This document shows, one piece after another, positions 1,633 to 32,796 of a stretch of 36,245 nt of DNA (position 1 is the stretch's first letter; each line of letters begins with the position of its first letter). The position numbers and the translations under genes are program-made. The notes beneath the pieces were generated by a model. It was given only the letters and a program-made list of their open reading frames with translations. It was not told the origin of the DNA and searched no databases. The stretch comes from a virus: positions 1 through 36,245 of the IMG/VR virus record IMGVR_UViG_3300045413_000158; one strand, written 5' to 3'.

Positions 1633-4125
1633 ATGCCAGTAGACGCAGCACGAACCGCGGCAGTACGCGCACAACGCGCACAGGCGCGACAAAACCAAAA
1701 AGATCTCAAAGCACTCCGAGGAAAAGAAGCGACGTATACTCGTTCCGTTTCTGCACCGGTCACAAAGGTGGTGGATGGACGGAATGTGCAGATGGGTACA
1801 AAAACGACGATAACGCCTACTGCAGTCAACGGACGCCGTATTTCTCCTTCTGGTGCATCTCCTGTATCGAAGGTGGTCACCCGTAATCTTTCAAGAGAAC
1901 AACAGTCTCTAGCAGATGCTTTGAAAAGTCCTTCCGTTGGCGGGGCAAATGTTGGTATTCGTCCAGGAACGGATATTTCATCGTTGAATCCTGCATCTCG
2001 TGCATCCTTGCAAGAATCGATCAATCAGCGAACGTATGGGACAGCACGACCCGTATTTCGTATTCCAGAAACAACACAGATACGAGATACTGGGATAGAT
2101 CAAACGGAGCAACCAATAACTAGAGGCACTACACAACCGATTAGTCGTCCTATTGTGAATGTTGGAGAAGCAGTACAAGAAAATATACCTGGGTATTACA
2201 ACACGCAACCTGAGGCACCACAGAGCCTTCAGGATATACGCCAAGACACACTTAGCCGGTATCAGCAGATGGTGAGTGCAACTCAGGATTATTACACGAA
2301 TCAAATTCAGAATATCCAGGAACAAGGTCGCCAGCTCGCAGCACGCGTTGGCTCGATGGATGTTGGAGCAGGTCTTGCAGGGTCTCCATTTGCTCAAGGG
2401 AATCAGAATCAAGTACAAGAAGCGACAAATCGTGCGATCCAACAAGTTGCAGCACAACGCAGTGCCGAAGTCGCAGGTTACCTTAATGATGCCTATAACA
2501 AAGCGGATCAGTTGTATCAGCAGAGGATTGAGAATTATCAGCAACAGCAAGGTGTTTATATTTCAGAACGTGACAAACTTCTTTCTCGACAAGATAAGAT
2601 GATTGCAGATCAGGAAGCAAAGAAGGAAGCACTGAAAAAATCAGCAGTTGAATCAATTGGAAATATTGCGACCGGTGGATATTCTATCGATGAACTCCCC
2701 GAGGCGCAGTATCAGAAACTTCTTCAAGACTCCGGCATGAGCGATTTCGAGGCTCGTGCGATTTGGGTTGCAAAAACACCAGAAGCGAATGCGAGCTATT
2801 CGGTCAGTGGTGACTATCTCGTCCAGCAATACTTTGATCCGAGAACTGGCAAGGCAGTCGTGAAGGCAACGCCGCTTCCCGATGAATTGAAAGGATCAAC
2901 GAATCCATCGATTAAGACGATAACGACGGGTGACGGACAAGTCTATTGGTACGATGAGAATAATCCGGTGAATCCCGATGGGAGTTTGAATGCAGTACCG
3001 ATTGGTGGGAAAAAGAGTTCATCATCGGAAGGTGCGCCAACAATAAAGACTTTCGCAGGCCAAGACTATCAATGGAATGAGTCTACCGGTTCTTGGGATG
3101 TCGTCAGTTTGCCTGATGAACTTTCCTCACAACAAAGTGAAAAAGCGAAAGAAATTAAAGACGTTGCATTAGATTTGCTCTCGGATGAATCACTTGGTGC
3201 AGCCGTCGGCCCCATTTCTTCCCGACTTCCGACACTCTTTGGTGGTACTTCTGATTTTGAAGAGAAATACAATCACCTTAAATCTCTCCTCACTCTTGAT
3301 AATATCGGACTTTTAAAAGGTACTTTGTCAGATAGGGATATGCAGATTCTCGAAAGTGCTGGTACTGCACTGAGTCTTCGTATGTCTGAAGAAGGATTTA
3401 AAGAAGAGTTGCAGAAAATTATTGGCATATCTTCTTCACAGGTGGGAGATGTACTATCTGACTATGAACCCGATCAATCCTACGTCAATGCTCTCCGCAA
3501 TAGTGTCAAAGTAGATGCTCAAGGCAATCCTCTCTCTGAGGATGAGATTGATGCGCTTGCTCGTTATGCAACAATGCTTACGAGTCAAGGGAAAACACAA
3601 CAGGAAATCATTGATAGTATCAATGCTGCCCTTCGTGGCGAAAAACAATCTTTTAACCAAGACCTGAGCATGTCGCAAAACGGCTCACCACTGGAGATTG
3701 CCAAGTCTTATATTGGACTTAATGCAAGCAATCCAAAGCAAGCAAAGACGCTCAGCGCATTCTTCAAAAAAGCAGGTGGTCTCGATGTTGATCCGGCTAC
3801 AACGGCTTGGTGTGCGGCATTCGCAAACTCGGTATTAGGTGCATCTGGCATTAAAGGCACCGGATCTCTCATGGCTCAAAGTTTCTTGAAATTTGGAACT
3901 CCAGTAGAAAAGCCAGCGAAGGGTGATATCGTTGTTTTTGAACGTGGGAAACGTGGTAGTGGATTAGGACATGTTGGTTTTGTCGTTGGTGTTAATGAAA
4001 ACGGTACATTGAAAGTGCTCGGTGGCAATCAAAATAACTCAACAAGTATTCAGACTTTCAAGACGGATCGTGTACTTGGATACCGAAGGATAAATAAGAA
4101 AAGTGTCCGTGAATATACTGGTTAA
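1633..4125 (+). CDS. Internal virion/ejection protein with a C-terminal peptidoglycan hydrolase domain (TIGR02594 / NlpC-P60-CHAP-like)
   Basis: 830 aa. The C-terminus AWCAAFANSVL...GDIVVFERG...GHVGFVVG...LGGNQNN has the Cys...His layout of phage TIGR02594-type cell-wall hydrolases. The centre is Gln-rich and coiled-coil-like. It joins the fibre gene through a TAATATG junction. Confidence 0.7.
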   Translation: MPVDAARTAAVRAQRAQARQNQKDLKALRGKEATYTRSVSAPVTKVVDGRNVQMGTKTTITPTAVNGRRISPSGASPVSKVVTRNLSREQQSLADALKSPSVGGANVGIRPGTDISSLNPASRASLQESINQRTYGTARPVFRIPETTQIRDTGIDQTEQPITRGTTQPISRPIVNVGEAVQENIPGYYNTQPEAPQSLQDIRQDTLSRYQQMVSATQDYYTNQIQNIQEQGRQLAARVGSMDVGAGLAGSPFAQGNQNQVQEATNRAIQQVAAQRSAEVAGYLNDAYNKADQLYQQRIENYQQQQGVYISERDKLLSRQDKMIADQEAKKEALKKSAVESIGNIATGGYSIDELPEAQYQKLLQDSGMSDFEARAIWVAKTPEANASYSVSGDYLVQQYFDPRTGKAVVKATPLPDELKGSTNPSIKTITTGDGQVYWYDENNPVNPDGSLNAVPIGGKKSSSSEGAPTIKTFAGQDYQWNESTGSWDVVSLPDELSSQQSEKAKEIKDVALDLLSDESLGAAVGPISSRLPTLFGGTSDFEEKYNHLKSLLTLDNIGLLKGTLSDRDMQILESAGTALSLRMSEEGFKEELQKIIGISSSQVGDVLSDYEPDQSYVNALRNSVKVDAQGNPLSEDEIDALARYATMLTSQGKTQQEIIDSINAALRGEKQSFNQDLSMSQNGSPLEIAKSYIGLNASNPKQAKTLSAFFKKAGGLDVDPATTAWCAAFANSVLGASGIKGTGSLMAQSFLKFGTPVEKPAKGDIVVFERGKRGSGLGHVGFVVGVNENGTLKVLGGNQNNSTSIQTFKTDRVLGYRRINKKSVREYTG

Positions 4126-4138
4126 TTAAATTAACTAT

Positions 4139-6214
4139 ATGTCTCTCGTTAGCCAAGCAATTACTATACGAAAAGATACCACACCGAAGAAAAAAGGTGG
4201 GTTAGAGAAATTTGCAGATACCATATCTGCTCCATTTGAAGCAGCAAGTAATCTTCTTGTAAAACCGGTTGTTGAGACATTTGCAAAACCATTTGGTGAA
4301 ACTATTGCTTCATCATATGAACTTGCAGGACGACAAGCTCCAGCATGGACACGAAGTAATCGTCTTTCTTCTCCAGAAATTCTTGCACTTGATCGTGTAG
4401 GGCTTAAGGGGCTTACTTCGAAAAAAGGAATTGCACAGGTACGCAATACTGCACAAGCCATGAAGAATCAGGGATATAAAGGAGCTGGTGCAACTGATAT
4501 TCTTAATGTTCTCTCACTTCTTCCTGGTGGGGCTTTTGCAAAAGGTGGACAAGCGATTGCTCGTGGTGCAGAAGTCGCAAGTGGTGCAGAACGATTTTTG
4601 CCAACGCTTGGGCGTACTTTCAAAGAAACTGTACCCGCTGCTGCTGGTTGGGGAACTGCGTATGGCGCAGCCGAAGCATACGACCAAGATGGATCAGCGA
4701 GGGATATCGCTACAGGTGCTTTGAAAGGTGGTCTTGTCGGTACAGCACTTGGTCTTGGACTTGGTACAGCATCAGCAATAGGAGGTGCTGGACTTCGGGC
4801 ACTTTCAAAGGCAACAAATAAGAGTGTTGCAGAAGAATCTGCTGTACGAAATAATCTTCGAAATTTGAATCAACTTGAAGATAATAATACACCACTCAAG
4901 AAACTTACATCGAAATACATGAGTCAGGGCATCGATGTGAAAGATATGGTATCAAAATCTGATTATCTTAAAGGAGCAGTAGATTCTAATGGTGTGATTC
5001 ATACCCTTCAAGAAGGAGGTGCTCTTTCTCAAGTAGATGATTATATTAAGCCATACGAAAGCGTCGTGAGTGATCTTTTAAAACGTGAAGGTAATACGAT
5101 TGGATTAGATACAGTTGAAGCATCAATGCGTTCAAAAATTGATTCAAGTGGCCTTGAAGGTGAAGCACTTGATGCTGCACATCGAAAGGTCAGTGCAGAA
5201 ATCAGCGGTCTTATACGACGTGCAGATAAGAGCGGCCGTATTCCTGTTGCACTTCTTCAGGATGCGAAGGTAAATAAGTACTCAACAATCAATTATCTTG
5301 ATCCTGCATCAAAAAAAGCAGATAAGACGATTGCACGGACATATCGTGATCTTATCGCGAAAAATACAACTTCTGCTGATGTTAATGCAGTAAATAAAGA
5401 ACTTCAGAAATACTATGCAGTAAAAGCATTTCTTGAGAAACTCGATGGAAGGAAAGTACAAGGAGGAAGACTTGGGAAGTATTTTGCACAAACCGTTGGA
5501 TCAATAGCCGGATCTCACTTTGGCCCGATTGGCTCCATTCTCGGTGCAGAACTTGGTGGCCGTATTCGTGGAATGGGATTAACTTCGACGTTTAATAAAG
5601 GACTCGGAAGAGGACTTACAGAATCCGATATCCTCATGGAAGCAAAAGCGCTCAGTAAAACTCCGCGTCCTCTTGTTCCTGAACATCTCCGGCTTCCAGC
5701 ACCAGATATTTCAAAATCTGGTCCAGTAATTCCACTTCGGGGGCCAACAACGTATGAGTCACGTGCTCCGATTGTTGGTGGTGAAGGACAAAATTTAAAG
5801 ACAGCAGAAAAAATATTAACACAACCTTCCGGTGTAATAGAGGGGAAACTTAAAACTCTACAAGATTTTTCTGATGAGATAAATTCTCGTGTTGATAAAT
5901 TCAGGAAAGAAGCGGGTATTATAGCGAACCGTGAAGGTGCTGGTGTGCGATTACGAAGTGTTGAAGATGGTGCTGGTAATATAAATTTTGTTACAAAAGG
6001 TTTCAATCTGAATCGTGCAAAAGCAAACATGAAAGCACAAGCAGATAGCGCAAAAAAATATGCTAAAACTCTATTATACGATAGTGATGAAGAGTTTAGA
6101 TCCCTTGTAGATTTTTATGATGCTCTTTTAGAAGAAGAAGCAAAAAAAGCAGATACAATACAAAGCATTGATAAAGTACTTCAAAAAATCAACGAAGAAA
6201 TAGACCTCTTCTAA
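4139..6214 (+). CDS. Large virion-associated protein (putative internal/ejection protein)
   Basis: 691 aa. It has Gly-rich hydrophobic segments (GGLVGTALGLGLGTASAIGGAG; VGSIAGSHFGPIGSILGAELGG). Its position after the hydrolase-bearing internal protein mirrors the T7-type layout. The function is inferred from position only. Confidence 0.45.
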   Translation: MSLVSQAITIRKDTTPKKKGGLEKFADTISAPFEAASNLLVKPVVETFAKPFGETIASSYELAGRQAPAWTRSNRLSSPEILALDRVGLKGLTSKKGIAQVRNTAQAMKNQGYKGAGATDILNVLSLLPGGAFAKGGQAIARGAEVASGAERFLPTLGRTFKETVPAAAGWGTAYGAAEAYDQDGSARDIATGALKGGLVGTALGLGLGTASAIGGAGLRALSKATNKSVAEESAVRNNLRNLNQLEDNNTPLKKLTSKYMSQGIDVKDMVSKSDYLKGAVDSNGVIHTLQEGGALSQVDDYIKPYESVVSDLLKREGNTIGLDTVEASMRSKIDSSGLEGEALDAAHRKVSAEISGLIRRADKSGRIPVALLQDAKVNKYSTINYLDPASKKADKTIARTYRDLIAKNTTSADVNAVNKELQKYYAVKAFLEKLDGRKVQGGRLGKYFAQTVGSIAGSHFGPIGSILGAELGGRIRGMGLTSTFNKGLGRGLTESDILMEAKALSKTPRPLVPEHLRLPAPDISKSGPVIPLRGPTTYESRAPIVGGEGQNLKTAEKILTQPSGVIEGKLKTLQDFSDEINSRVDKFRKEAGIIANREGAGVRLRSVEDGAGNINFVTKGFNLNRAKANMKAQADSAKKYAKTLLYDSDEEFRSLVDFYDALLEEEAKKADTIQSIDKVLQKINEEIDLF

Positions 6215-13301: not shown

Positions 13302-13505
13302 TCACAACATAGAATTAAAGACTATGAACTCTTTTCTTTCAAAATAGTGTGAAATTACACCATTAAATTCATGCCCTTCTCCTTGTTGTTTTTTATGGAG
13401 TGTATGGATGAAAGACTCTACCTTTGTTTCTGAAGGGAATCGAACATTCCAGCCACAGATATGACATGTCACACGTATAACCTGAACCAGATCATCGTTG
13501 TGCAT
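13302..13505 (-). CDS. Small protein with a CxxC motif (67 aa)
   Basis: The start is taken at the internal ATG (MHNDDLVQVIRVTCHICGWN...). The longer track ORF (to 13640) overlaps the upstream zinc-ribbon gene in another frame. Confidence 0.5.
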   Translation of the reverse strand: MHNDDLVQVIRVTCHICGWNVRFPSETKVESFIHTLHKKQQGEGHEFNGVISHYFERKEFIVFNSML

Positions 13506-13719
13506 ACTTATAATGAATAACAGGAAGTCCGTTATCGAGTGCCTCATTGAATACTCTTTTTGAGATATCCTTGAAACATCGGACAGTGGAACCATCATTA
13601 CAAACATGACAACGGGTGAGGTAGACGATACGACCATCATCTGTCAGAAGGACAAGACGAATAGTAAGCACGGTGCTGCAATCAGGACATGAGATGCAAG
13701 AAATTGTATCCCAGATCAT
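13492..13719 (-). CDS. Zinc-ribbon protein (75 aa)
   Basis: MIWDTISCISCPDC...TRCHVCNDG has two CxxC pairs. Its ATG overlaps the stop of the upstream micro-ORF (ATGA). The track start at 13854 is a TTG. Confidence 0.55.
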   Translation of the reverse strand: MIWDTISCISCPDCSTVLTIRLVLLTDDGRIVYLTRCHVCNDGSTVRCFKDISKRVFNEALDNGLPVIHYKYAQR

Positions 13720-13838
13720 TGTTGCACACGGCGGTCGTAGAGACAGGCGTGAAGGATCAGAAGCGGCAGAATGCACGCAAACAAGATACTTGGCTTCTCT
13801 ATTGCAGCCCACATGATCCACGAATGAAAGAACGACAT
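13716..13838 (-). CDS. Micro-ORF, 40 aa, hydrophobic (MSFFHSWIMWAAIEKPSILFACILPLLILHACLYDRRVQQ)
   Basis: Hand-translated. It is preceded by GGAGGAatcactATG, one of the very few strong Shine-Dalgarno sequences in the genome. It is coupled to the next gene by an ATGA overlap. Confidence 0.45.
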   Translation of the reverse strand: MSFFHSWIMWAAIEKPSILFACILPLLILHACLYDRRVQQ

Positions 13839-13951
13839 AGTGATTCCTCCACAACTGCTCACATTCTTTGGGAGAATATCATCTCAAAAGGAGGATAATG
13901 AGATAATACACGGCCGAAGCCAGGAACATCAGCATGTGAGGAGGAATCACT
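13839..13951 (-). promoter_or_regulatory. Structured intergenic RNA that can sequester the Shine-Dalgarno sequence of the 13838 micro-ORF
   Basis: A perfect 12-bp inverted repeat (13839-13850 / 13940-13951) pairs AGUGAUUCCUCC with GGAGGAAUCACU on the - strand. The enclosed region has an 11-bp hairpin with CCUCC in its loop and a GGC-UUCG-GCC hairpin. Confidence 0.5.
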
Positions 13952-13968
13952 GAGAGTATATCACGTTT

Positions 13969-14304
13969 TTATACTGTATTTTTTGCCTCTTCCAAGAAAT
14001 ACTTTTGAGCGGCTTTGAGAGAACGGATCAATTCCTCGATTGCTTTAATTCGTCCGGTGAGTTTAATGACTCGTTTTCCTTCATCGCTTCCACGAACAAG
14101 CTGCTTTGCTTTTGCTGATGTTACTGTTTCATCTTTGAGAAGCTCACACTCCATCTTTGCGGTGTCCGCCAGCGCATCACATAATTCTACGGAATATTGT
14201 GCAAATATACTTGTGAGAAATGAATAGTAATGGACCACATTTGCTGGAGTAAGACTATCCGGTCGCTTCATGTGATCGATGATCCCTTCGATTGTAAATT
14301 CCAT
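13969..14304 (-). CDS. Hypothetical helical protein (111 aa; alternative start at 14271)
   Basis: ORF from the track. The ATG at 14271 forms an ATGA overlap with the upstream stop and would give 100 aa. Confidence 0.6.
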   Translation of the reverse strand: MEFTIEGIIDHMKRPDSLTPANVVHYYSFLTSIFAQYSVELCDALADTAKMECELLKDETVTSAKAKQLVRGSDEGKRVIKLTGRIKAIEELIRSLKAAQKYFLEEAKNTV

Positions 14305-14501
14305 AGATGTTGGATTTTGAGGAAAAATGTATTTGATCGCTCAGTTCTTTCGTGGCATGTCCGACAAAGATCAACAAGTACAGATGGATCATTTTTGCGT
14401 TCCGGAGATGTGCTTCTTCGTTCAGTATGGTGTCGATCAATCATTTCTACTGTTGATGGTTTACCACACCAAAAGCAAGAACGGGATTGATCGAATAGCA
14501 T
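14268..14501 (-). CDS. Small HNH-type endonuclease-like protein (77 aa)
   Basis: CFWCGKP...DRHHTERRS...LCRTCHERTE fits the CxxC...HH...CxxCH layout of HNH nucleases. Confidence 0.6.
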   Translation of the reverse strand: MLFDQSRSCFWCGKPSTVEMIDRHHTERRSTSPERKNDPSVLVDLCRTCHERTERSNTFFLKIQHLWNLQSKGSSIT

Positions 14502-14503
14502 AT

Positions 14504-15025
14504 TTATCCTGCCGCGATTAACCTCGCGACTTCTTTGATTTTACTTTCGGTTCCTTGTAATGCGTGTATGTCCACTGAATTGTATGAAGTGGCATCGTTG
14601 TACTTCCTCCGATCCATGACGAATGGTAAACATCCTTCTCCCTTTCCGTCTGAATAATCCACTCCTGTATATTCCACTTGTTTTCCATCGGAATTTCTGG
14701 AAAGTGGCAATGGATTAGTGCGTTCCAGGGAAGCAATGAATGCGTCTTGAGTAATAAGCTCGTCAGTTTTTCCGCATCCTTCTTCATCAAGGTCGCGAAG
14801 TGATAATCCTGTTGTGTTGTCTTCTCCTTCATTCCCTTCCATCGATTCTCGCATATCTGCGCCCAGTACAGCATCTTCTTTTTCAATCGATGAATACGGA
14901 ACATTACAAATAATCCATACATATTCCTTGAAGTTAATGCGCTTTTCTTCTCGAAGAGGCTTGTATTTTGCAACCCGTTCGTCGTAGGACATTGCTTTCA
15001 GTTGTTCAAGCTCTTCTAACGTCAT
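14504..15025 (-). CDS. Hypothetical acidic protein (173 aa)
   Basis: The start is taken at MTLEELEQL (ATG 15025), 4 nt after the upstream stop. The track start at 15064 overlaps the upstream gene. Confidence 0.6.
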   Translation of the reverse strand: MTLEELEQLKAMSYDERVAKYKPLREEKRINFKEYVWIICNVPYSSIEKEDAVLGADMRESMEGNEGEDNTTGLSLRDLDEEGCGKTDELITQDAFIASLERTNPLPLSRNSDGKQVEYTGVDYSDGKGEGCLPFVMDRRKYNDATSYNSVDIHALQGTESKIKEVARLIAAG

Positions 15026-15029
15026 AAGA

Positions 15030-15215
15030 CTATTTGTTTGATTCTTTTCCCTTTCGTATTGCATCAGACCATGCTTTCTTTTCCTCGTCGGTTTTCTTCG
15101 CCCAGCGATACTTATTTCGCTGCGTTGCCATGACGCTCCGTGCGATGCTCAATACTTCTTCTTCAGAGGCAATATGTTTCTTCCCATTTTCGTCGATCCA
15201 AATCTTCTTTTCCAT
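15030..15215 (-). CDS. Hypothetical basic protein (61 aa)
   Basis: ORF from the track with an ATG start, packed within the operon. Confidence 0.55.
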   Translation of the reverse strand: MEKKIWIDENGKKHIASEEEVLSIARSVMATQRNKYRWAKKTDEEKKAWSDAIRKGKESNK

Positions 15216-15256
15216 ACCTGCATTATATCATGCCATTAGTGAAACTATGTGAATAA

Positions 15257-15427
15257 CTATTCTATCATTAATAGTACTGCAATGGCTAAATCGAAAGCAC
15301 CCATAAAAATTCCAATAATTGATAACGGAACATTTATTTCTCCTCCCTTTTTTACTCCACCAGAAGACGCAATAAAGAGTATCAATATACCTTGGAGAAA
15401 CATTATGAGAGCTAATATATATTTCAT
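15257..15427 (-). CDS. Micro-ORF, 56 aa, two-helix membrane protein (MKYILALIMFLQGILILFIASSGG...IIGIFMGAFDLAIAVLLMIE)
   Basis: Hand-translated with an ATG start. It forms a clean transmembrane hairpin. I prefer it to the overlapping TTG-started 67-aa track ORF 15228..15431. Confidence 0.45.
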   Translation of the reverse strand: MKYILALIMFLQGILILFIASSGGVKKGGEINVPLSIIGIFMGAFDLAIAVLLMIE

Positions 15428-15454
15428 ACAAGGACTTTTTGAGATTCTTTCATA

Positions 15455-15562
15455 TTATTTCTTCTCTTCACATTCAGGACATAACCCTTTGAATGGTTCG
15501 TATGGATGTGTCTTGATCCAAAGGAAGATCTCGCCGCATTGTTCGCAGTACATGTGTGGCAT
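15455..15562 (-). CDS. Micro-ORF, 35 aa, zinc ribbon (MPHMYCEQCGEIFLWIKTHPYEPFKGLCPECEEKK)
   Basis: Hand-translated. It has two CxxC pairs, with AAGGA 7 nt upstream of the ATG. It fills the gap after the 15582 gene. Confidence 0.5.
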   Translation of the reverse strand: MPHMYCEQCGEIFLWIKTHPYEPFKGLCPECEEKK

Positions 15563-15581
15563 ATTTCATCCTTACGAATCT

Positions 15582-15959
15582 TCACGGCCGAACCCACAGC
15601 ACATTATCTGCTTTTGTTTTATTACACTCGTGACAACATGTGACAAGGTTTCTTTTGTCATTTGTTCCACCTTTTGAGACCGGAATAATGTGATCGATTG
15701 TGAGATTCATTTTCTCCACCACCTTCAGTGCACGACGGAGAGTATCGGAGAAGACAGGGTAATTGTTATGAAGGGCGACGATATAATTTGCATCCTCAAT
15801 TTCGCATGCTGGCCATTCAGTGCCAGATGCAACACCAGGGGCTATATCCACTAAAGAAGGATATGCATCACTCCATGGCTCAGAGATATTCCACTCACCC
15901 TGTGTCGCTTTTTCGCGTAGTTCATCCAACACGTCGAGTATTTTTAGGATGTCTTGCAT
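15582..15959 (-). CDS. Ead/Ea22-like N-terminal region fused to an HNH nuclease motif
   Basis: 125 aa. ...EKATQGEW...EIEDANYIVALHNNYPVFSDTLRRAL resembles the Ea22-like pattern. The C-terminus IDHIIPVSKGGTNDKRNLVTCCHECNKTK is a classic HNH core. Confidence 0.55.
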   Translation of the reverse strand: MQDILKILDVLDELREKATQGEWNISEPWSDAYPSLVDIAPGVASGTEWPACEIEDANYIVALHNNYPVFSDTLRRALKVVEKMNLTIDHIIPVSKGGTNDKRNLVTCCHECNKTKADNVLWVRP

Positions 15960-16324
15960 AGGGTAATGAGGTTATGTTCGAGGAGATGAATGAGTGCTTT
16001 TGCACGAGCATCCGCTTCGGTATCAGAAAGGAATACTGTTGCATCAATATCTTTATTCCATTCCGTTACCCATTGATCCGGAATATAGCCTATTGTAGGA
16101 GCGTATTCGCTTTTTACCTTTTTCATCATTTCTCCTAATTCTGCGACAGTGAAGGCTGAATACGCATCTGGATTTCCATTCTTCTTGAGTTTCTTTACTT
16201 TAAAACGCATTTCGTCTACGTCTGACATTATTCCTTCCCACATGAAATAGCTTTTTTGTTCAACCCCGAGTTCTTTCAACCTCTTCGCATGTTCGAGCGA
16301 GCAAATATGTTTTTTTATTTGCAT
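15944..16324 (-). CDS. Hypothetical protein (126 aa), distant paralogue of 16519..17019
   Basis: Shared pattern by eye: HAKRLKELGV / TAVKLKEAGW near the N-terminus and a helical ...A.A.l.l.e.NL C-terminus. Confidence 0.6.
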   Translation of the reverse strand: MQIKKHICSLEHAKRLKELGVEQKSYFMWEGIMSDVDEMRFKVKKLKKNGNPDAYSAFTVAELGEMMKKVKSEYAPTIGYIPDQWVTEWNKDIDATVFLSDTEADARAKALIHLLEHNLITLCKTS

Positions 16325-16342
16325 AGGACCTTTTTCATAAAG

Positions 16343-16522
16343 TTATTTTTTACAAAAGAATTTATGTTCTACGCTACGTCTCAAAATGAGACCACCCATT
16401 TCTTTCTCGATGTATATTGCTCCTCCGCAACAAAATAATATTTCCTTACTTAATATGCCAGTCTTAAGCGTTATTGGCACAATAGCCTCCCGTACGGCGG
16501 CGAGGGTGTCGATGGGGGTCAT
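16343..16522 (-). CDS. Micro-ORF, 59 aa (MTPIDTLAAVREAIVPITLKTGILSKEILFCCGGAIYIEKEMGGLILRRSVEHKFFCKK)
   Basis: Hand-translated. Its ATG overlaps the upstream stop (ATGA at 16519-16522). It is one residue below the ORF-track cut-off. Confidence 0.5.
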   Translation of the reverse strand: MTPIDTLAAVREAIVPITLKTGILSKEILFCCGGAIYIEKEMGGLILRRSVEHKFFCKK

Positions 16523-17019
16523 AAAAGATTTTGTTCTTTAGCCCATAGCCATGCAGACGCACATGCTTCGCTGAATTCCGTACCGAACATGCTACCAATT
16601 GTTTCTGGTGTGTTTAACGCCGAGTGTTTGTATGTAATACAAGAGTCAATGAGAGAACTTGTTCCATTATCCCCGAAGTAGAATGTCCAGAAACATCCGC
16701 TATCGTTCCATGTGATTGCACATTCGTTTGTGATGTCGAGTTCTTTGAGGATTTCTTGTGCATCTGGTGCCTTCAAAGCTTCTTTTACTGTCCATGTATT
16801 AGGGAATAATGGCATGTTTGAAAGGAAATTTATTTCACGCAAAGATTCTACAGGAATCAATTTCCACCCTATTACGAATATTCCAAATGGCTGATTGTGT
16901 ATCTTTCTACCTGTTTCATCGTGAATGAGTATATATTCACGTTCCGTCTCAGATTCCCATCCCGCCTCCTTCAACTTCACCGCTGTTTCGTGTGAGATGC
17001 ATTTCGATGATGAGGTCAT
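16519..17019 (-). CDS. Hypothetical protein (166 aa)
   Basis: The start is taken at MTSSSKC (ATG 17019), 2 nt after the stop of the upstream micro-ORF. The track start is 17058. Confidence 0.6.
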   Translation of the reverse strand: MTSSSKCISHETAVKLKEAGWESETEREYILIHDETGRKIHNQPFGIFVIGWKLIPVESLREINFLSNMPLFPNTWTVKEALKAPDAQEILKELDITNECAITWNDSGCFWTFYFGDNGTSSLIDSCITYKHSALNTPETIGSMFGTEFSEACASAWLWAKEQNLL

Positions 17020-17021
17020 AT

Positions 17022-17177
17022 TCAGTTCTTCCATAACAGTGCGAGTGCAACTGACCATCCACAGAATGCGAAGAAGTTTCCGTCAATTATTGCTAGTAAG
17101 ATACCTGCTTGGGTGAGTATGAAGAGAACTTTTTTAGCTGTTTTGTTATTTTTTGTGCGTGTCTCTATATTCAGCAT
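17022..17177 (-). CDS. Micro-ORF, 51 aa, membrane protein (MLNIETRTKNNKTAKKVLFILTQAGILLAIIDGNFFAFCGWSVALALLWKN)
   Basis: Hand-translated. It has a basic N-terminus followed by hydrophobic helices. Its stop abuts the next start (TGAATATG). Confidence 0.45.
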   Translation of the reverse strand: MLNIETRTKNNKTAKKVLFILTQAGILLAIIDGNFFAFCGWSVALALLWKN

Positions 17178-17273
17178 AATCAATGTTTATTTTTCCATCG
17201 TCGGTGTTGTCATAGGTTTTTATATATAGTGCACTGACGAAGAAACACCGGTTTGTTTGTGATTGTACTTGGA

Positions 17274-17459
17274 TTAAAGATAGATTCTGTGTGATTGTGT
17301 GTACTTGCAAACCTTACACTCACGGCATTCCTGTATATACGTTTTTATTGGGAGCGTTGTTGAAGCACTAGAATCAAATATTTTGTTCAAGAACGGTACT
17401 CCATCTGTATTTTTTACTGTCTTCCATTTACTCCAATCGTGAAAGATGTGGAATTTCAT
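17274..17459 (-). CDS. Hypothetical protein (61 aa) with a C-terminal CxxCxxC motif
   Basis: ORF from the track, with the motif ECRECKVCKY. Confidence 0.55.
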   Translation of the reverse strand: MKFHIFHDWSKWKTVKNTDGVPFLNKIFDSSASTTLPIKTYIQECRECKVCKYTQSHRIYL

Positions 17460-17462
17460 AGA

Positions 17463-18110
17463 TCAAAACGGTATTTCTTCGAGTGGTATAGTCTCTGTAG
17501 CCTCTTGTGGTGTGCTCGGCGGTACGAATCGTTCACCGGCCTTGTATTTGTTTCCACATACTCCCGAACAATTCATCGCATTCGGGAATTTCGCGTCTAC
17601 TGCGAACGTTTTATTGCACACAGCACAATTCTTCGTATTTTGCTTTTGCGACGATCCTGAGGCATTTGGTGTGGTCTGGGAGGCCTTCGGTGCGACTTCG
17701 TGTGTCTGCGTCTCGGTATCTTTCTCGTCTTCTGTTGGGATACAGAATAGTTGCATCATGGCGTACTTGTACGCTGCGCTCATTGCCTTGTTGCTACCCT
17801 TATCTCCACTGTCCATAGCTTCACCGATGGTAACGAGGCGTACATTCGTCCCATCCGAGGCATAAACGGTAAATTCTACATTGAGGATAGTGTAGAGAAG
17901 TAATCCGCCCTTTGTGCTCGTTCGCTCCTCACGTTTCTCAGAGAGAACAACTGGACAAAAGAACACTCCATACCTCGAAAGAATAGGATTGAGTGCGTTG
18001 TACACGTCGTCGATCCCACGGAACTTATAATTTTGTAGATCGTTCTTACGATCCTTTGAGATAGGCTCAATCTCCTCCATGACTTTCTGAATGCTTTGGT
18101 AGATGTTCAT
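17463..18110 (-). CDS. erf: ERF-family single-strand annealing recombinase
   Basis: 215 aa from MNIYQSIQKVMEEI. NYKFRGIDDVYNALNPIL, GEAMDSGDKGSNKAMSAAYKYAMMQLFCIPT match the ERF signature. The start is taken 1 nt after the upstream stop. Confidence 0.75.
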   Translation of the reverse strand: MNIYQSIQKVMEEIEPISKDRKNDLQNYKFRGIDDVYNALNPILSRYGVFFCPVVLSEKREERTSTKGGLLLYTILNVEFTVYASDGTNVRLVTIGEAMDSGDKGSNKAMSAAYKYAMMQLFCIPTEDEKDTETQTHEVAPKASQTTPNASGSSQKQNTKNCAVCNKTFAVDAKFPNAMNCSGVCGNKYKAGERFVPPSTPQEATETIPLEEIPF

Positions 18111-18111
18111 A

Positions 18112-18273
18112 CTACATGCTTGCTTTAAGGCCGATAAATAAGAGTGCAGTACCAATCACGAACATTCCGAGGATCACGAACCACACGCCTTTCTCGATGC
18201 GCCACTGTCGATGTTCACGCTTCACGGCACGAATGCCTGGAAGTGCCCAGTTGCTGTATTGAGGCTTGTACAT
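18112..18273 (-). CDS. Small membrane protein (53 aa)
   Basis: The start is taken at the ATG of the TAATAATATG junction (18273). It has one transmembrane helix (VWFVILGMFVIGTALLFIGL). The track start is a TTG. Confidence 0.5.
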   Translation of the reverse strand: MYKPQYSNWALPGIRAVKREHRQWRIEKGVWFVILGMFVIGTALLFIGLKASM

Positions 18274-18277
18274 ATTA

Positions 18278-18409
18278 TTAGCAATTATTACATCGACGCG
18301 GGATTCCAACGTCTTTTACTTCGTCCCCACACTCGAAACAGCAACAGTTGCATTCGGTATCACACGCTTTACTAGTGATGGCATGTGCGGTATCGGTTCG
18401 ATCGGACAT
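18278..18409 (-). CDS. Micro-ORF, 43 aa, cysteine-rich (9 Cys: ...KACDTECNCCCFECGDEVKDVGIPRRCNNC)
   Basis: Hand-translated. It starts 1 nt after the upstream stop (TAGTATG) and ends in the TAATAATATG junction. Confidence 0.45.
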   Translation of the reverse strand: MSDRTDTAHAITSKACDTECNCCCFECGDEVKDVGIPRRCNNC

Positions 18410-18410
18410 A

Positions 18411-18590
18411 CTAGAAATCAGTTACTTCTCGTGTATCTGCGGTGAGTGCCTTTGCGTCTGCTGCAAGTGCCATATCAAGGTCAGCGAGTACATAACGGAA
18501 GGGTGCCGCGGTCGCACGGTCGAATGCACCTTGGAGTTGATTGATTGCACATTCCATGTTCTTGAGTGCCATTGTCTGGTCGTATGTCAT
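18411..18590 (-). CDS. Micro-ORF, 59 aa, Ala-rich helical protein (MTYDQTMALKNMECAINQLQGAFDRATAAPFRYVLADLDMALAADAKALTADTREVTDF)
   Basis: Hand-translated. Its ATG overlaps the upstream stop (ATGA at 18587-18590). Confidence 0.5.
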   Translation of the reverse strand: MTYDQTMALKNMECAINQLQGAFDRATAAPFRYVLADLDMALAADAKALTADTREVTDF

Positions 18591-18847
18591 AGCGATGGGT
18601 TAATTTCTGGCTCTTGGTATCCGTGTTCTTTTACCTTTGCACGTCCCCATTCTTGGATGCGTTCAAATTCTCTGGCATTACTCATGGCAAGATCATATTT
18701 CAGTTTAATCACTCGCTGAATAATGTCAGATGCCTGTTGCTTTGAAAGGTGTGTCTCGATCCATTTTGTGCAGTGCTCTTGATTCTTCTCTTTCGTATAC
18801 AATTTCTTGCCAATCACTTCTGCTTGTTTTGCGGTGCATGGTTCCAT
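18587..18847 (-). CDS. Hypothetical protein (86 aa)
   Basis: ORF from the track with an ATG start. It is the first gene after the internal promoter/hairpin. Confidence 0.6.
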   Translation of the reverse strand: MEPCTAKQAEVIGKKLYTKEKNQEHCTKWIETHLSKQQASDIIQRVIKLKYDLAMSNAREFERIQEWGRAKVKEHGYQEPEINPSL

Positions 18848-18867
18848 AGAATGACATTAGGAACGAG

Positions 18868-18915
18868 AAGCCACAGAGCATCAGACAGTCGAGACCATGT
18901 GATGTTCTGTGGCTT
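18868..18915 (-). promoter_or_regulatory. Long 5' UTR hairpin (16-bp stem, 16-nt loop), 21 nt upstream of the 18847 start
   Basis: aagccacagagcatca / tgatgttctgtggctt are complementary apart from one G:U position. Confidence 0.5.
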
Positions 18916-18947
18916 TTGAAGGTGGAGGCTCTCGCCATCACGAAGGT

Positions 18948-18975
18948 ATCATACCACGCCATTAGTGAAAGGCAA
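18948..18975 (-). promoter_or_regulatory. Candidate sigma70-type promoter (TTGCCT-16 bp-TGgTATGAT) inside the early block
   Basis: On the - strand the -35 is 18975-18970 and the extended -10 is TGgTATGAT, with its hexamer at 18953-18948. It lies just downstream of the terminator at 19018-19046. Confidence 0.4.
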
Positions 18976-19017
18976 GTTTATGTTGTGTATATCTCATAAA
19001 TAGCCTGATAGAAGTGA

Positions 19018-19046
19018 TAAAAACACAAAACCACAGTTTCCCGTGG
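19018..19046 (-). terminator. Intrinsic terminator after the first early gene
   Basis: On the - strand: CCACGG-GAAA-CUGUGG (GNRA loop, one G:U pair) followed by UUUUGUGUUUUU. Confidence 0.65.
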
Positions 19047-19072
19047 CGTGTGTGTACCGACCATTGTTTTCT

Positions 19073-19384
19073 TTAGAGTGTTTTGATCAGAGTATCCATC
19101 GCCTCGATGAAGTCAGACACCTTGTCAAGCTTCATGAGTTTCTTGTCTTGGAGCGCCTTGATAATCTCGAAAGCTTGCTTCCCCTTATCTTGTGCTCGTT
19201 CCTGGAGATAAACGGGATACGATTCTTTAATGACGGTCGGGTAGTACCAGTTCGACCAGCAATCCCAAGTCGTCGACGGCCAGTACCCAAAGTTTGCACT
19301 ACCTGACGTTATTGTTCCTGTCTGAGGGAGAACAGTATTGCCCGTAACAAACGCATCCATGAGTGCCTGTGAGTGTGAATCCAT
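19073..19384 (-). CDS. First early-block protein, function unknown (103 aa; the track ORF extends to a GTG at 19450)
   Basis: The first ATG gives MDSHSQALMDAF.... The N-terminal half is Trp/Tyr-rich and the C-terminus helical (AFEIIKALQDKKLMKLDKVSDFIEAMDTLIKTL). Confidence 0.55.
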   Translation of the reverse strand: MDSHSQALMDAFVTGNTVLPQTGTITSGSANFGYWPSTTWDCWSNWYYPTVIKESYPVYLQERAQDKGKQAFEIIKALQDKKLMKLDKVSDFIEAMDTLIKTL

Positions 19385-19450
19385 AGATAGTGCGTGGGCG
19401 GGATAAGCGACCACGGAATAGTTAGGATCGGTACTCCTCCATAGTAACAC

Positions 19451-20117
19451 AATACCGCCCCGGAGGAGAGCGGTATGTGTGGTAACGCGGATAGTTTGTC
19501 CCTAATTTCGACGAGGCGTTCTGTGAGCGAACAATGATGGGTGTAACTTGGGGCCGCGTTTCACGCGTAAGGTAACGCGGCTATCCTGCGAAGCTAGCAA
19601 TAGGAGTTCAATTCTTCGGTTCGCACCGAACTGGAATTTCTCCCATAGGAACATCACCATTGTACTATTGTGGATTTTCTACTGAACCGTGGAAGGTGTT
19701 GATAAATGAACTAAAACACCCCCTATGCCTTTCGGATAAGAGGTGTTATAGTCTTTATCGTTGGAAATAAAGGATGAGTAAAGTATTTCATTACTTGTCA
19801 TCCTTGTCAACCGACAGGGATATTTTTATCCCGAATCTCTGACGGGAAGGTCGGGTGAACCGATAGAGCCTCCGTTGGCTGCCAAGTTAAATCTATCGGA
19901 TTGATGTTTGTGATGTCCACGGCAGCATCCGTGGTGGACTCAAAGCTTCAATCTCATATTACGTCAACCGTACCAACGTAATATGTTATAGCCAATCTCC
20001 ACCGAGGTGGGGCGAGGACAGGGAAACGGTGCAGGGGATCGAAGGTTTCTTCTCCCTGAAAGAGCTGGCTCACCAGACGGGCTTTTGTTCTTCTTTTGGA
20101 TCTAAAGCTTCAAGGCT
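19451..20117 (-). ncRNA. Candidate large structured RNA, or an unusually long structured 5' leader, transcribed from the - strand
   Basis: 667 nt have stops in all six frames, and the sampled GC is about 55-57%. At least 12 local hairpins are present. Five of them gain G:U pairs and/or GNRA loops (GAAA, GAAA, GCGA) only when read on the - strand. The class is unknown. Confidence 0.4.
19782..19810 (-). promoter_or_regulatory. Candidate - strand promoter inside the structured region (TTGACA-17 bp-AATACT)
   Basis: A perfect -35 (TTGACA) lies at 19810-19805 and a 4/6 -10 at 19787-19782. The -35 overlaps a TGACAAG-ga-TGACAAG direct repeat. Confidence 0.3.
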
Positions 20118-20600
20118 ATGAAAAAGAAATTGACTCAGGAATATCTTAGCTATATTCAATCATCTGATTGGTTTAAAAAAGCTCAAAGAATTAGAGATAG
20201 AGACGTAGTGTGTCAAGGTTGCGGGTCGGAAAAGAATTTGGATGTGCACCATAAAACGTATAAACGCTTTAAGCACGAAAGTGATGAAGATTTAATATTA
20301 ATATGCAGACAATGCCATGAACAGATCCATAAAAAGAAAAAGAAATCGAATCTTGATAAAGTAACTAATAAGCTAATTAAAATGACACAAAATAGAGCGA
20401 TGAGATTTGATAAGCTTGATGAAAAGTGTAGAAAGTGCGGCGGTATTCTAATTATGAGACAAGCAAAACTCACTGAGAAACGGTTAAAACGCGCATATCA
20501 TTTTTGTCATTTTAAGCAATGCTTGTCATGTTCTGCATTTTTTATGCTCGAGGAATTTAAGACATATCCAAATGAAAGTTGTAATTGTGAGCGTGTATAA
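20118..20600 (+). CDS. Free-standing HNH endonuclease with a C-terminal zinc ribbon
   Basis: 160 aa. SSDWFKKAQRIRDRDVVCQGCGSEKNLDVHHKTYKRF...DLILICRQCHEQIH is the common phage HNH pattern, and a second CxxC...CxxC lies at the C-terminus. The gene is markedly AT-rich (first 60 nt are 27% GC) relative to its GC-rich flanks. Confidence 0.8.
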   Translation: MKKKLTQEYLSYIQSSDWFKKAQRIRDRDVVCQGCGSEKNLDVHHKTYKRFKHESDEDLILICRQCHEQIHKKKKKSNLDKVTNKLIKMTQNRAMRFDKLDEKCRKCGGILIMRQAKLTEKRLKRAYHFCHFKQCLSCSAFFMLEEFKTYPNESCNCERV

Positions 20601-20738
20601 GGGTTGGGAAAGAGCCGTCTCAAAAAAGAGAGCGGTAGTTTAGCTATACATGTCAGCTTCATGCCTGTGAGTAACTCTATGCACATGGGTGTATAATGTT
20701 TTTTGTCACAAGGTTGCGATTACCCCCGCAACGTGTAG

Positions 20739-20806
20739 AAAACTCTTTTTCCCTGGTGCCTGATCCGCAAGGATTCGGGGGGTACGCCAGGGGAGAAGAG
20801 TTTTTT
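20739..20806 (+). terminator. Long terminator/attenuator hairpin immediately upstream of the replication gene
   Basis: The 18-bp basal stem aaaactctttttccctgg / ccaggggagaagagtttt has two G:U pairs that are valid only on the + strand. The upper stem is tipped by a GCAA tetraloop (20767-20770). A T6 run follows at 20801-20806, and the ATG at 20835 is 28 nt downstream. Confidence 0.6.
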
Positions 20807-20834
20807 ACATCCTCATTGGGGCGAAGAAGTTTAT

Positions 20835-21575
20835 ATGGATACAGGATGGATCAAGATTCATCGAAAGCTGCTAGATAATCCCACGGTTATGAAAGACGCC
20901 GACCATTTCGCGATATGGGTTTGGCTTCTTTTGAAGGCAACGCATGAGGGCATCGACGTAATCTTCGGAGGAGAAAGAATTACCCTATCACCTGGACAAT
21001 TTACTACCGGAAGAAAGGTTATCTCTAATGCTTTGGGCGTTTCTGAAAGTAAAGTGCAACGTGTTTTATCTTGCTTCGAAAGTGAACATCAGATTGAACA
21101 ACGAACAGATAGACAATGTAGGCTAATAACAGTACTAAAATGGTCTGAGTATCAAAAACGTGAACAACGAAATGAACATCAAATGAACAACGATCGAACA
21201 ACGAGTGAACAACGAGTGAACACTAAACAAGAATGTAAGAATGAAAGAATGAAAGAAACTGAGAGTGAGGCGACTACGTCGCTCGCTCCCATAAAAACAA
21301 AAAAGACTCCATCACAGATTGCTCATACATTCTTCGAAGATGGCGCGGATCATACCCAGACGATTGAGTACCTCGTTGGAAAGGGCGTACCAGAAGAAGT
21401 AGCAAAACAAGAGATGGCAAAGTTTATCTCTTACTGGACTGAGCCAAATAAAAGCGGGACGAAGGTGAGGTGGCAGGGAGAAACACACTTTGATCTCAAA
21501 AGGAGAATGGTGACATGGTTCAGCCGCATCCGAGGATATAGTGAAAATAAAGAATCTAAAGGAATCAAACTATGA
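20835..21575 (+). CDS. Replication initiation / replisome-organiser-like protein (winged-helix N-terminus, Phg_2220_C-like C-terminus)
   Basis: 246 aa. GWIKIHRKLLDNP...HFAIWVWLLLKA...TGRKVISNALGVSESKVQRVL is an N-terminal DNA-binding fold typical of phage replication organisers. The C-terminus has F..YW....K.G...RWQ....FDLKRR...W. An iteron array lies in the central linker. Confidence 0.6.
   Translation: MDTGWIKIHRKLLDNPTVMKDADHFAIWVWLLLKATHEGIDVIFGGERITLSPGQFTTGRKVISNALGVSESKVQRVLSCFESEHQIEQRTDRQCRLITVLKWSEYQKREQRNEHQMNNDRTTSEQRVNTKQECKNERMKETESEATTSLAPIKTKKTPSQIAHTFFEDGADHTQTIEYLVGKGVPEEVAKQEMAKFISYWTEPNKSGTKVRWQGETHFDLKRRMVTWFSRIRGYSENKESKGIKL
21083..21226 (+). repeat. Iteron array (putative origin of replication) inside the replication gene
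   Basis: TGAACAACGA or close variants occur at 21083 (variant), 21095, 21161, 21173 (variant), 21184, 21195, 21206 and 21217 (variant). The last six are spaced 11-12 bp apart. An AAGAATG x3 A-rich tract follows at 21229-21255. Confidence 0.65.
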
Positions 21576-31519: not shown

Positions 31520-32764
31520 ATGGCAAATACTGTAGTATTCGAGACAAAGTTCTCGGATCGAATGCAGGTGGTTCGTTACTCGACCGGTGTCTATTCACAA
31601 CAGGCATCGTTTGAGGAACGTGCAAAACTTGTTTCAGGTCAAGTTGTTACTCGCCCATTTATCGGACGCTTCTTTGAACAGACGTATACACGAGGAAGTG
31701 ATCTCACCATTCCAAATGTAACGGAAACGGGAGAAAACCTTACAGTGAACACAGCGAAGGCAACACCGTTCTCGGTAGATGATCTCGACGCACTTCAAAG
31801 TAATTACAACTCGATGGATGAATATTCAAAAGGTTCAATGGCAGCTTTGAACAAAGCAATCGATGCAGATTATCTTGCCGAAGTTGCGAATGCAACATCG
31901 TCTGTTGACGCGGGTGATGTTGGTGGAACGTCCGGTCAAGGTATTACGCTTGATTCGACAAACATCCTTCAAATCTTTGCGGCAGCACGTCGGAAACTCA
32001 TGCTCCAAAATGTTGACATCGTTGGAATGAGTGATAAGCGTGCAGCAATCGGAAACATGAAACCAATGGGTGCAGCAGCGTTTGCTGACATGAACCCATA
32101 CGTTTCTGAGCAGCTTTTCTACTCGATGGCAGGTCGTGAAACACCAGGTGGTGATCAAAGTGGAAAAAATGGATATCTTTCAAGTCACTTTGGATTCGAT
32201 ATTTACGAAACAACGAACGGATACTGGACGGGTACGCTTGCACTTGCAACACAGCCAACTGATGGTGACACAGTAACGATTAACGGTGTTGTCTTTACCT
32301 TTAAGACGACTCTTGGATCGACCGCTGGGAACGTCCTCATTGGTGCATCTGCTGCAACGGCAAACACGAACCTTGCAGCGTTGATCAACACTCCAGGTAC
32401 GACGACGGCACAGGGTGTTGCTCTCTCAACGGATAACCAGAACCTTTTGAAGCGTGTCACTGCAACGGCAGCATCAACATCAACCGCAATCGTTGCGAAG
32501 GGCTACGGATATCTTGTGGTTTCTGAAACGCTTACTGCAGCAGCAGACGTTTGGACGACGACTGCACAGATTTCTCACAATCTTTTCGGACAGAAGGGAT
32601 CAATCGATATGGTTCTTGCGAAGGAACCTTCTGTGAAGGTTGACTCTATCCCTCTGCAGCTTGGTGTCTACGTGAAGCCACATACCTTGTATGGTGTAAA
32701 AACATTCACCGAAGGCGCAAAAGGTCTTGTTAACGTGAAGGTCAAGTCTTCCTCTTGGGTCTAA
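31520..32764 (+). CDS. Major capsid protein (putative HK97-fold with an internal insertion)
   Basis: 414 aa. It follows the scaffold gene and is followed by a strong terminator. The call rests on position and size only. Confidence 0.7.
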   Translation: MANTVVFETKFSDRMQVVRYSTGVYSQQASFEERAKLVSGQVVTRPFIGRFFEQTYTRGSDLTIPNVTETGENLTVNTAKATPFSVDDLDALQSNYNSMDEYSKGSMAALNKAIDADYLAEVANATSSVDAGDVGGTSGQGITLDSTNILQIFAAARRKLMLQNVDIVGMSDKRAAIGNMKPMGAAAFADMNPYVSEQLFYSMAGRETPGGDQSGKNGYLSSHFGFDIYETTNGYWTGTLALATQPTDGDTVTINGVVFTFKTTLGSTAGNVLIGASAATANTNLAALINTPGTTTAQGVALSTDNQNLLKRVTATAASTSTAIVAKGYGYLVVSETLTAAADVWTTTAQISHNLFGQKGSIDMVLAKEPSVKVDSIPLQLGVYVKPHTLYGVKTFTEGAKGLVNVKVKSSSWV

Positions 32765-32771
32765 AAGAAAC

Positions 32772-32796
32772 GGGGGTAGCAATACCCCCTTTCTTC
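32772..32796 (+). terminator. Intrinsic terminator after the capsid gene
   Basis: GGGGGTA-GCAA-TACCCCC (GNRA loop) followed by TTTCTTC. Confidence 0.75.

Follow-up and report, generated by a model that had tools for sequence, protein, structure and literature searches.

The question raised by this locus is whether, and by what means, a leader RNA with a terminator-like hairpin controls transcription into the replication genes of a phage. The window, meaning the whole stretch of DNA analysed, is a complete 36,245-bp phage record of IMG/VR with direct terminal repeats. Its early block on the minus strand (13302-19450), which includes an Erf-like annealing protein, diverges from a long plus-strand block in which the genes are ordered HNH endonuclease, DnaD-like gene, small genes, ParB-methyltransferase fusion, terminase subunits and virion genes. 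The DnaD-like gene, rep (20835-21575, +), encodes a helicase loader or replisome organiser (PHROG phrog_2514, E 8e-34; Pfam matches to Phage_rep_org_N and DnaT are weak) and is the first gene of the unit that we propose to be gated; the small ORFs downstream of it gave no matches in PHROG searches of their proteins. Within rep, at 21095-21215 (+), lie five copies of TGAACAACGA with at most one mismatch, three of them spaced at 11 bp; the genome holds 13 copies where 4.3 are expected, and the cluster is likely to be an iteron-type origin. A loose Shine-Dalgarno-like 4-mer precedes only 8 of 34 start codons in the genome, and T(A/T)TATG is the sequence at many of the starts; translation in the host probably begins independently of Shine-Dalgarno sequences.

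The first gene of the plus-strand block (20118-20600, +) encodes a 160-amino-acid HNH endonuclease (Pfam HNH, E 2e-5; HNH families of PHROG). It is context and lies outside the leader element: the map of L002, the locus with the closest full-length relative of the rep protein among those compared (52-54% amino-acid identity), has the leader without an HNH gene at the matching place, and because of this absence the gene at 20118 was probably inserted there, with the divergent control region on one side and the leader on the other. The genome has a second HNH endonuclease gene at 15582-15959 (-). The idea of a group I intron or HEARO-type RNA tied to the HNH gene was rejected for want of Rfam support, and is also countered by the flanking genes, which lie on opposite strands, and by the L002 leader, which is not accompanied by an HNH gene.

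The leader RNA ahead of rep, about 100 nt long, is a real element, supported by covariation and absent from Rfam. Its -10 hexamer, TATAAT (20692-20697, +), implies a transcription start near 20704; the best -35 candidate at 17-nt spacing is GAGTAA, a poor one, which bears out the initial annotation in its failure to find a convincing -35. Hairpin 1 (20713-20732, +) pairs GUUGCG (20713-20718) with CGCAAC (20727-20732) in a 6-bp stem that closes an 8-nt loop, AUUACCCC, and carries the heptamer UACCCCC (20721-20727, +), called U here. RNAfold joins hairpin 1 directly to a long terminator-like hairpin of 78 nt (20733-20810, +; delimited by the RNAfold minimum free energy structure and its z-score), in which an 18-bp stem (20739-20756 with 20787-20804, including the G:U pairs U20748:G20795 and U20750:G20793) is extended to a lower stem of 26 bp (20733-20758 with 20785-20810). 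The portion of this stem above the U tract amounts to 16 bp (20743-20758 with 20785-20800). Further up, an upper stem of 8 bp (20759-20766 with 20771-20779) is capped by a GCAA tetraloop (20767-20770), and GGGUA (20780-20784) is left unpaired as a 5-nt 3' bulge. This bulge region holds the second heptamer, U' (GGGGGUA, 20778-20784, +), which was confirmed to be exactly complementary to U and is predicted to form with it a duplex of -12.1 kcal/mol. U' runs directly into the 3' strand of the lower stem and lies 16 nt ahead of a U6 tract (20801-20806, +) and 50 nt from the rep ATG. A third pairing site at the start codon is absent, only a 4-nt GGGG run being present.

The two hairpins, the 18-bp stem with its two G:U pairs, the GCAA loop, the U6 tract and the ATG at 20835 all lie where the initial annotation had placed them, and its view of the long hairpin as having terminator architecture holds, in that a G+C-rich stem of 16 bp stands directly above U6. 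The 28-nt spacer that follows (20807-20834, +) has no Shine-Dalgarno sequence and leaves, as that annotation argued, no room for a promoter between the terminator and the rep ATG. No ATG-started ORF that could encode a leader peptide is present from the implied start near 20704 up to 20835, and the only ORF across the leader region begins at 20696, within the -10 hexamer. The fold is far more stable on the plus strand (-65.2 kcal/mol, z -6.55, equalled by none of 200 shuffles) than on the minus strand (-45.1 kcal/mol, z -3.9), a difference of 20 kcal/mol; for the hairpin core, which has four G:U pairs on the plus strand, the values are -35.1 and -20.9 kcal/mol, respectively. A genome-wide scan for hairpins followed by T-runs ranked the leader hairpin as by far the strongest in the window genome; no other had a G+C-rich complement upstream. 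A simple terminator scanner run on the window did not list it, probably because the rules of that scanner require a stem with a 3-8-nt loop and the bulge interrupts the stem.

Loci encoding relatives of the rep protein were gathered from IMG/VR, JGI metagenomes and GTDB genomes, and are designated by L-numbers, with WIN for the window's own leader; the closest relatives of the rep protein, such as P0002 (68% identity), are outside this locus comparison. At the equivalent place, L002 has a -10-like TAGTAT, a hairpin with an 8-nt loop and a long hairpin with a 6-nt 3' bulge and the same basal sequence as in the window (GAAAACUCUUUU ... AAGAGUUUUUU). Its loop, UUCUCGC, is complementary to its bulge, GCGAGAA, in the places where the window has UACCCCC and GGGGGUA. 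Covariation of the two 7-mers in homologues had been proposed as a check on their pairing, and the check was passed: the relatives pair with unrelated letters. Ahead of rep, they have a loop or segment (U) with a Watson-Crick match of 6-12 nt to an unpaired patch (U') of the terminator-like hairpin that follows. In type A leaders (WIN, L002, L024, L054 and L111), the loop of hairpin 1 pairs with a 3' bulge, as in L024 (CCUCAGCC/GGCUGAGG), L054 (UUAGACC/GGUCUAA, with a rep protein only 26% identical) and L111 (UGCACC/GGUGCA); the loop sequences of hairpin 1 in these four relatives all differ from that of the window. In type B leaders (L003, L067, L055 and L037), the same loop pairs with the apical loop of the long hairpin, a pairing that for L055 was found only in the fold of the whole leader and not with the hairpin from the terminator scan. 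Type C leaders (L010, L066, L009, L068, L039, L160, L065 and L077) have matches of 9-12 nt, or at two sites, to the apical region. Two further loci, L007 and L057, possess the hairpin with no detectable U partner. A -10-like hexamer stands about 10-15 nt before hairpin 1 in the relatives, several of which have promoters of the form TTGACA-16/17-TATAAT (hexamers read by eye in both cases).

The arrangement of these parts is as regular as their letters are variable. Their order in the RNA (U, 5' strand, U', 3' strand) means that U:U' together with the lower stem would constitute an H-type pseudoknot. The initial annotation had offered the pairing as either mutually exclusive with the terminator hairpin or a pseudoknot; the pseudoknot stands, and the competition does not, since U' sits in a bulge outside the terminator stem, so that the two pairings are predicted not to compete in secondary structure. 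In type A leaders, 0-1 nt separates U' from the 3' strand, and the stem that separates U' from the U tract is 16-19 bp long. The distance from the end of U' to the T-run is 14-25 nt in every locus of types A and B and in most of type C; in L039 and L010, the U' that was scored lies 1 and 7 nt, respectively, from an earlier internal T-run. The free energies predicted for the U:U' duplexes are -4 to -19 kcal/mol overall and -7.7 to -14.6 kcal/mol in type A. In most members, a G+C-rich stem is followed by five to seven U's (six in the type A leaders). The T-run lies 0-30 nt from the rep start codon across the members, reaching it directly in L111 (TTTTTTATG) and ending 2 nt before it in L024, and no leader member has a Shine-Dalgarno sequence before rep.

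A custom scan for a strong hairpin with a T-run at most 41 nt from the rep start found this combination at 24 of 139 loci of rep relatives. For 19 non-redundant loci, we scored the longest Watson-Crick match that an unpaired part of the hairpin makes within the preceding 110 nt: the match was at least 7 nt long at 15 loci, compared with two of 19 in a direct-repeat control and one of 19 in a downstream-sequence control (Fisher combined p = 1.6e-13 against 500 dinucleotide shuffles per locus). The predicted U:U' pairing is thus established by covariation. The hairpin was more stable on the plus (gene) strand at 17 of the 19 loci, with 63 G:U pairs on the plus strand against 15 on the minus strand, a test that is partly biased by ascertainment in that hairpins were selected for stability on the plus strand. 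Together with the orientation of the U tracts and the sigma-70-like promoters, the G:U pairs indicate that the leader is an RNA transcribed from the plus strand. A covariance model trained on just WIN and L002, and run with filters off, recovered L024 (E 1e-3), L111 (E 0.075) and L054 (E 1.9), each at the correct position and on the correct strand; with default filters, this model is too sequence-bound for discovery. Of the 42 loci where the gap upstream of rep is 120 nt or more, 16 have the leader, compared with 2 of the 75 where the gap is shorter than 40 nt; the leader is thus typical of loci where rep heads a transcription unit.

Searches for the motif beyond the rep relatives were made at several levels. 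In IMG/VR, an exact DNA search with the full 42-mer of the hairpin gave no match, a strict pattern for the basal stem matched only the L002 contig, and a looser pattern added L170, the remaining matches looking like chance. The leader thus added belongs to another phage (L181 1501-1636, identical to L170 10990-11125) and has a basal stem like that of the window with its own U (TCACATG) and U' (CATGTGA). It precedes a 156-amino-acid ORF of unknown function, followed by a DnaB/RepA-like helicase gene, and since this ORF is unrelated to rep, the leader is tied to replication modules rather than to one protein family. Rfam gave no family match to the leader in the window at the gathering score, only chance-level matches in 20500-20950 at E values up to 10, no match above the gathering score in the upstream spacer, and no leader match in 17 related loci, where an unrelated tRNA in L002 was the sole hit. 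A search of the literature for this leader motif found no paper describing it.

We consider the leader most likely to be an attenuator gated by a kissing loop, that is, a terminator whose closure is controlled by a pseudoknot, with the kiss favouring read-through into the replication module; in this complete form the model is tentative, with a probability that we place a little below even. Transcription would start a few bases upstream of hairpin 1, which would fold first, its loop displaying the 7-mer U. Next would come the upper part of the long hairpin and then U', emerging 16 nt before the U tract, so that U and U' would both be free to pair while the lower stem still lacks its 3' strand. 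By kissing U', U would close a ring that holds the 5' strand of this stem. The 3' strand, tethered to the polymerase, could not wind about 1.5 turns round the ringed strand without threading, and it is because of this obstacle to winding that we favour the kiss as delaying closure of the terminator base. The polymerase would meanwhile pass into rep and across the iterons at 21095-21215. If U or U' were occupied, or the kiss failed, the full stem of 16-26 bp would form and transcription would stop at the U6 tract. In read-through RNA, the stem would also bury the start region of rep, as the T-run lies so close to the start codon and the members have no Shine-Dalgarno sequence. Termination, the sign of the effect (kiss to read-through) and the existence of a modulating input are all parts of the model that we infer. 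Any ON state could only be kinetic, because the stability of the full hairpin (about -35 kcal/mol) greatly exceeds that of the 7-bp kiss (about -12 kcal/mol). The poor -35 of the window's own promoter and the two loci with no detectable U, L007 and L057, are weak points of the model.

The nearest mechanistic likeness is the guanidine-IV (mepA) riboswitch, in which an upstream hairpin loop likewise kisses the terminator hairpin, and for which the kissing loop has been proposed to aid dissociation of the terminator and so promote read-through (PMC11611296). The loops of guanidine-IV are conserved and bind guanidine, whereas the loop letters of the phage leader differ in every member; its genes encode transporters, whereas the phage leader precedes replication genes and the partner of its loop is often a 3' bulge. 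Guanidine-IV gave no Rfam match in the window, in 20500-20950 at E values up to 10 or in the 17 related loci, and the likeness is one of mechanism, not of membership. The suggestion in the initial annotation that a small molecule could be the trigger now seems unlikely, since no loop nucleotide is conserved among the members.

The sign of the effect is where the favoured model is most exposed. U' has no overlap with the terminator stem, neither heptamer is paired in the minimum free energy structure of the terminator form, and a steric estimate allows the kiss alongside the 16-bp stem provided that hairpin 1 is folded back against that stem; the kiss could therefore equally brace the hairpin. 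As a tertiary brace, it would aid folding of a constitutive terminator or protect a stable small RNA, and rep would be expressed by a fixed low leak, a behaviour known from other leader terminators such as GraL of the greA leader, which is described as giving short RNAs and a fixed fraction of read-through (PMC2836576). A stem of 16-26 bp needs no brace, however, and a brace would hardly explain why the pairing, with its constant spacing to the U tract, is retained through full turnover of its sequence in many lineages; nor is there a convincing trans target for a small RNA elsewhere in the window genome. This opposite sign of the kiss effect is a live rival, albeit one that we regard as quite unlikely. 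The closeness of the T-run to the start codon invites another, post-transcriptional reading, in which ribosomes land on the U-rich tract, the hairpin serves as a translational operator or RNase III site, and opening of the start region or cleavage of the stem depends on the kiss. Phages have RNase III sites such as T7 R1.1 and that of the lambda N leader, which stems of at least 20 bp with an asymmetric bulge resemble, and the T-run that runs into the start codon of L111 (TTTTTTATG) or stops 2 nt short of it in L024, the SD-less rep genes of all members and the few genes with Shine-Dalgarno sequences in the window genome would all suit such a role. The U tract of the window lies 28 nt from the ATG, however, the spacing varies from 0 to 30 nt among members, and a G+C-rich stem with an immediate U run is the signature of an intrinsic terminator, all of which makes this reading improbable. 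The strand evidence bears on whether the element acts as RNA at all. About 290 nt separate the leader from the iteron cluster downstream in rep, and complementarity between U and U' is symmetric between strands, as would be expected of a cruciform, an origin structure or inverted protein-binding sites in DNA; we consider such a feature highly improbable in view of the excess of G:U pairs on the plus strand (63 against 15), the orientation of U tracts and promoters with the gene, the insertion of U' in one arm only, for which sites in double-stranded DNA have no need, and an iteron sequence unrelated to U.

The variability of U and U' suggests a further reading, in which the pairing acts in trans: leader transcripts ended at the U tract would accumulate as a small RNA and kiss nascent leaders, so that termination would be set by genome dosage, or the replication genes of an incoming identical phage would be blocked. 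Such a role, which we hold to be unlikely, is compatible with the kissing-loop-gated terminator, for which it would supply the modulating input. In the released RNA, pairs between the A-tract and the U-tract extend the stem to 26 bp, hairpin 1 adjoins the stem with a linker of 0-1 nt (in the window, L002 and L024), and U and U', both unpaired, are estimated to lie about 70 A apart, a geometry suited to intermolecular kissing. WIN, L002, L025 and L170/L181 share a near-identical basal stem with four unrelated versions of U' (GGGGGUA, GCGAGAA, GCAGAA and CAUGUGA). Between WIN and L002, identity is about 50% in U/U', about 83% in the lower stem (alignment A4; 74-77% pairwise), 63-69% in the rep gene and about 40% in flanking non-coding DNA, a pattern that fits the specificity determinant of a trans-acting RNA, because in such RNAs the recognition loops are hypervariable and the flanks conserved. 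The shared basal stem with unrelated U/U' in four leaders thus hints at an RNA "address", and there are precedents for same-strand complementarity that acts in trans on the operon of the RNA itself (PMC4825925). The accumulation of a short RNA is hypothetical, however, compensatory drift alone could yield the variation in U/U', the argument from hypervariability rests on small counts, and no lysogeny genes were seen in the window phage, which counts against immunity in trans. That the leaders form a ligand-free, address-coded class of kissing-loop attenuators, widespread at phage replication modules, with U/U' as a self-recognition code read in trans, strikes us as doubtful; if true, it would provide dosage control or superinfection immunity with neither a protein nor an antisense gene, and the trans pairing would be a new kind of RNA-based self-recognition in phages. 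A search for trans targets of the leader elsewhere in the window genome found no convincing site. A 13-nt sequence, GGGAAAAAGAGTT, at 3007-3019 (+) within an 830-amino-acid ORF, is the complement of 20741-20753, within the lower stem's 5' strand, and this match is probably due to chance.

Regulation of replication genes by leader RNAs has several known forms. In phage P4 (CI RNA, with pairing of seqB to seqA and seqC) and Gifsy-1 (IsrK), complementary segments lie on the same strand of a leader, like U and U' ahead of rep, and RNA-RNA pairing decides premature termination or activation of the replication or early operon; for IsrK, a short RNA terminated in the leader acts on its own read-through mRNA (PMC4825925). 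The phage leader has no sequence or Rfam similarity to these RNAs (the P4 CI and P1 C4 RNA families had no Rfam homology in the leader or the 17 related loci) and differs from P4 CI and IsrK in that its partners lie about 50 nt apart in one compact unit of two hairpins. Among plasmids, the structure of the leader sets the supply of initiator in the antisense-driven attenuators of pT181 and pIP501 and in the rep pseudoknot of IncI-alpha/IncB, and short hairpin loops are the recognition elements of such leaders. Plasmid rep leaders need an antisense RNA gene, whereas a consensus scan of 20700-21000, with a consensus that may not be that of the host, found no promoter-like site on the minus strand; moreover, the phage leader differs from the IncI-alpha/IncB pseudoknot in that it has no leader ORF and its U' is 50 nt from the ATG rather than beside the ribosome site. 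In phage lambda, terminators that follow early promoters are released by N or Q (tR1, which gates O and P, and PR'-tR'), and a terminator directly after a promoter gates downstream genes, as proposed here. Components like N, Q, nut or qut were not found in the window, however, and the initial annotation's report that no N- or Q-like antiterminator is recognisable holds, as the 160-amino-acid protein encoded upstream matches HNH families only; integrase, repressor, N and Q homologues were not seen among the window proteins searched. The leader is absent from the cultured relatives examined: in Pseudomonas phages KLEP17-4 and Orisa03 and Shewanella phage 3/49, rep lies within a cro-like operon, with the cro-like gene before rep, and in Pseudoalteromonas phage HS2, whose record is unannotated, nothing more than a small plain hairpin stands before rep.

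The phage leader thus fits the known logic of attenuators and kissing loops in an arrangement that is itself uncatalogued. If the model of a kissing-loop-gated terminator holds, many uncultured phages would control the supply of their initiator by a small, self-contained RNA device that family catalogues have missed because the pairing alone is conserved, and an intrinsic terminator would be gated with neither protein nor ligand. Such a device would be a programmable part, in which 7-letter swaps on both sides should yield orthogonal gates.

The sole other copies of either leader 7-mer in the genome lie in a terminator-like hairpin at 32768-32796 (+), right after a 414-amino-acid ORF (31520-32764). 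Its sequence, AGAAAC-GGGGGTA-GCAA-TACCCCC-TTTCTT, builds the stem from both 7-mers and also shares the GCAA loop; reuse of U and U' as a hairpin stem elsewhere in the genome was not seen in L002 or L003. The 670-nt non-coding spacer contains a tRNA-like match at 19556-19625 (+), which at 22.8 bits (E 0.042) falls below the Rfam tRNA gathering score of 29 and in whose region ARAGORN found no tRNA; L002 has a tRNA gene (5872-5945, +; 64.8 bits) in its replication/early region.
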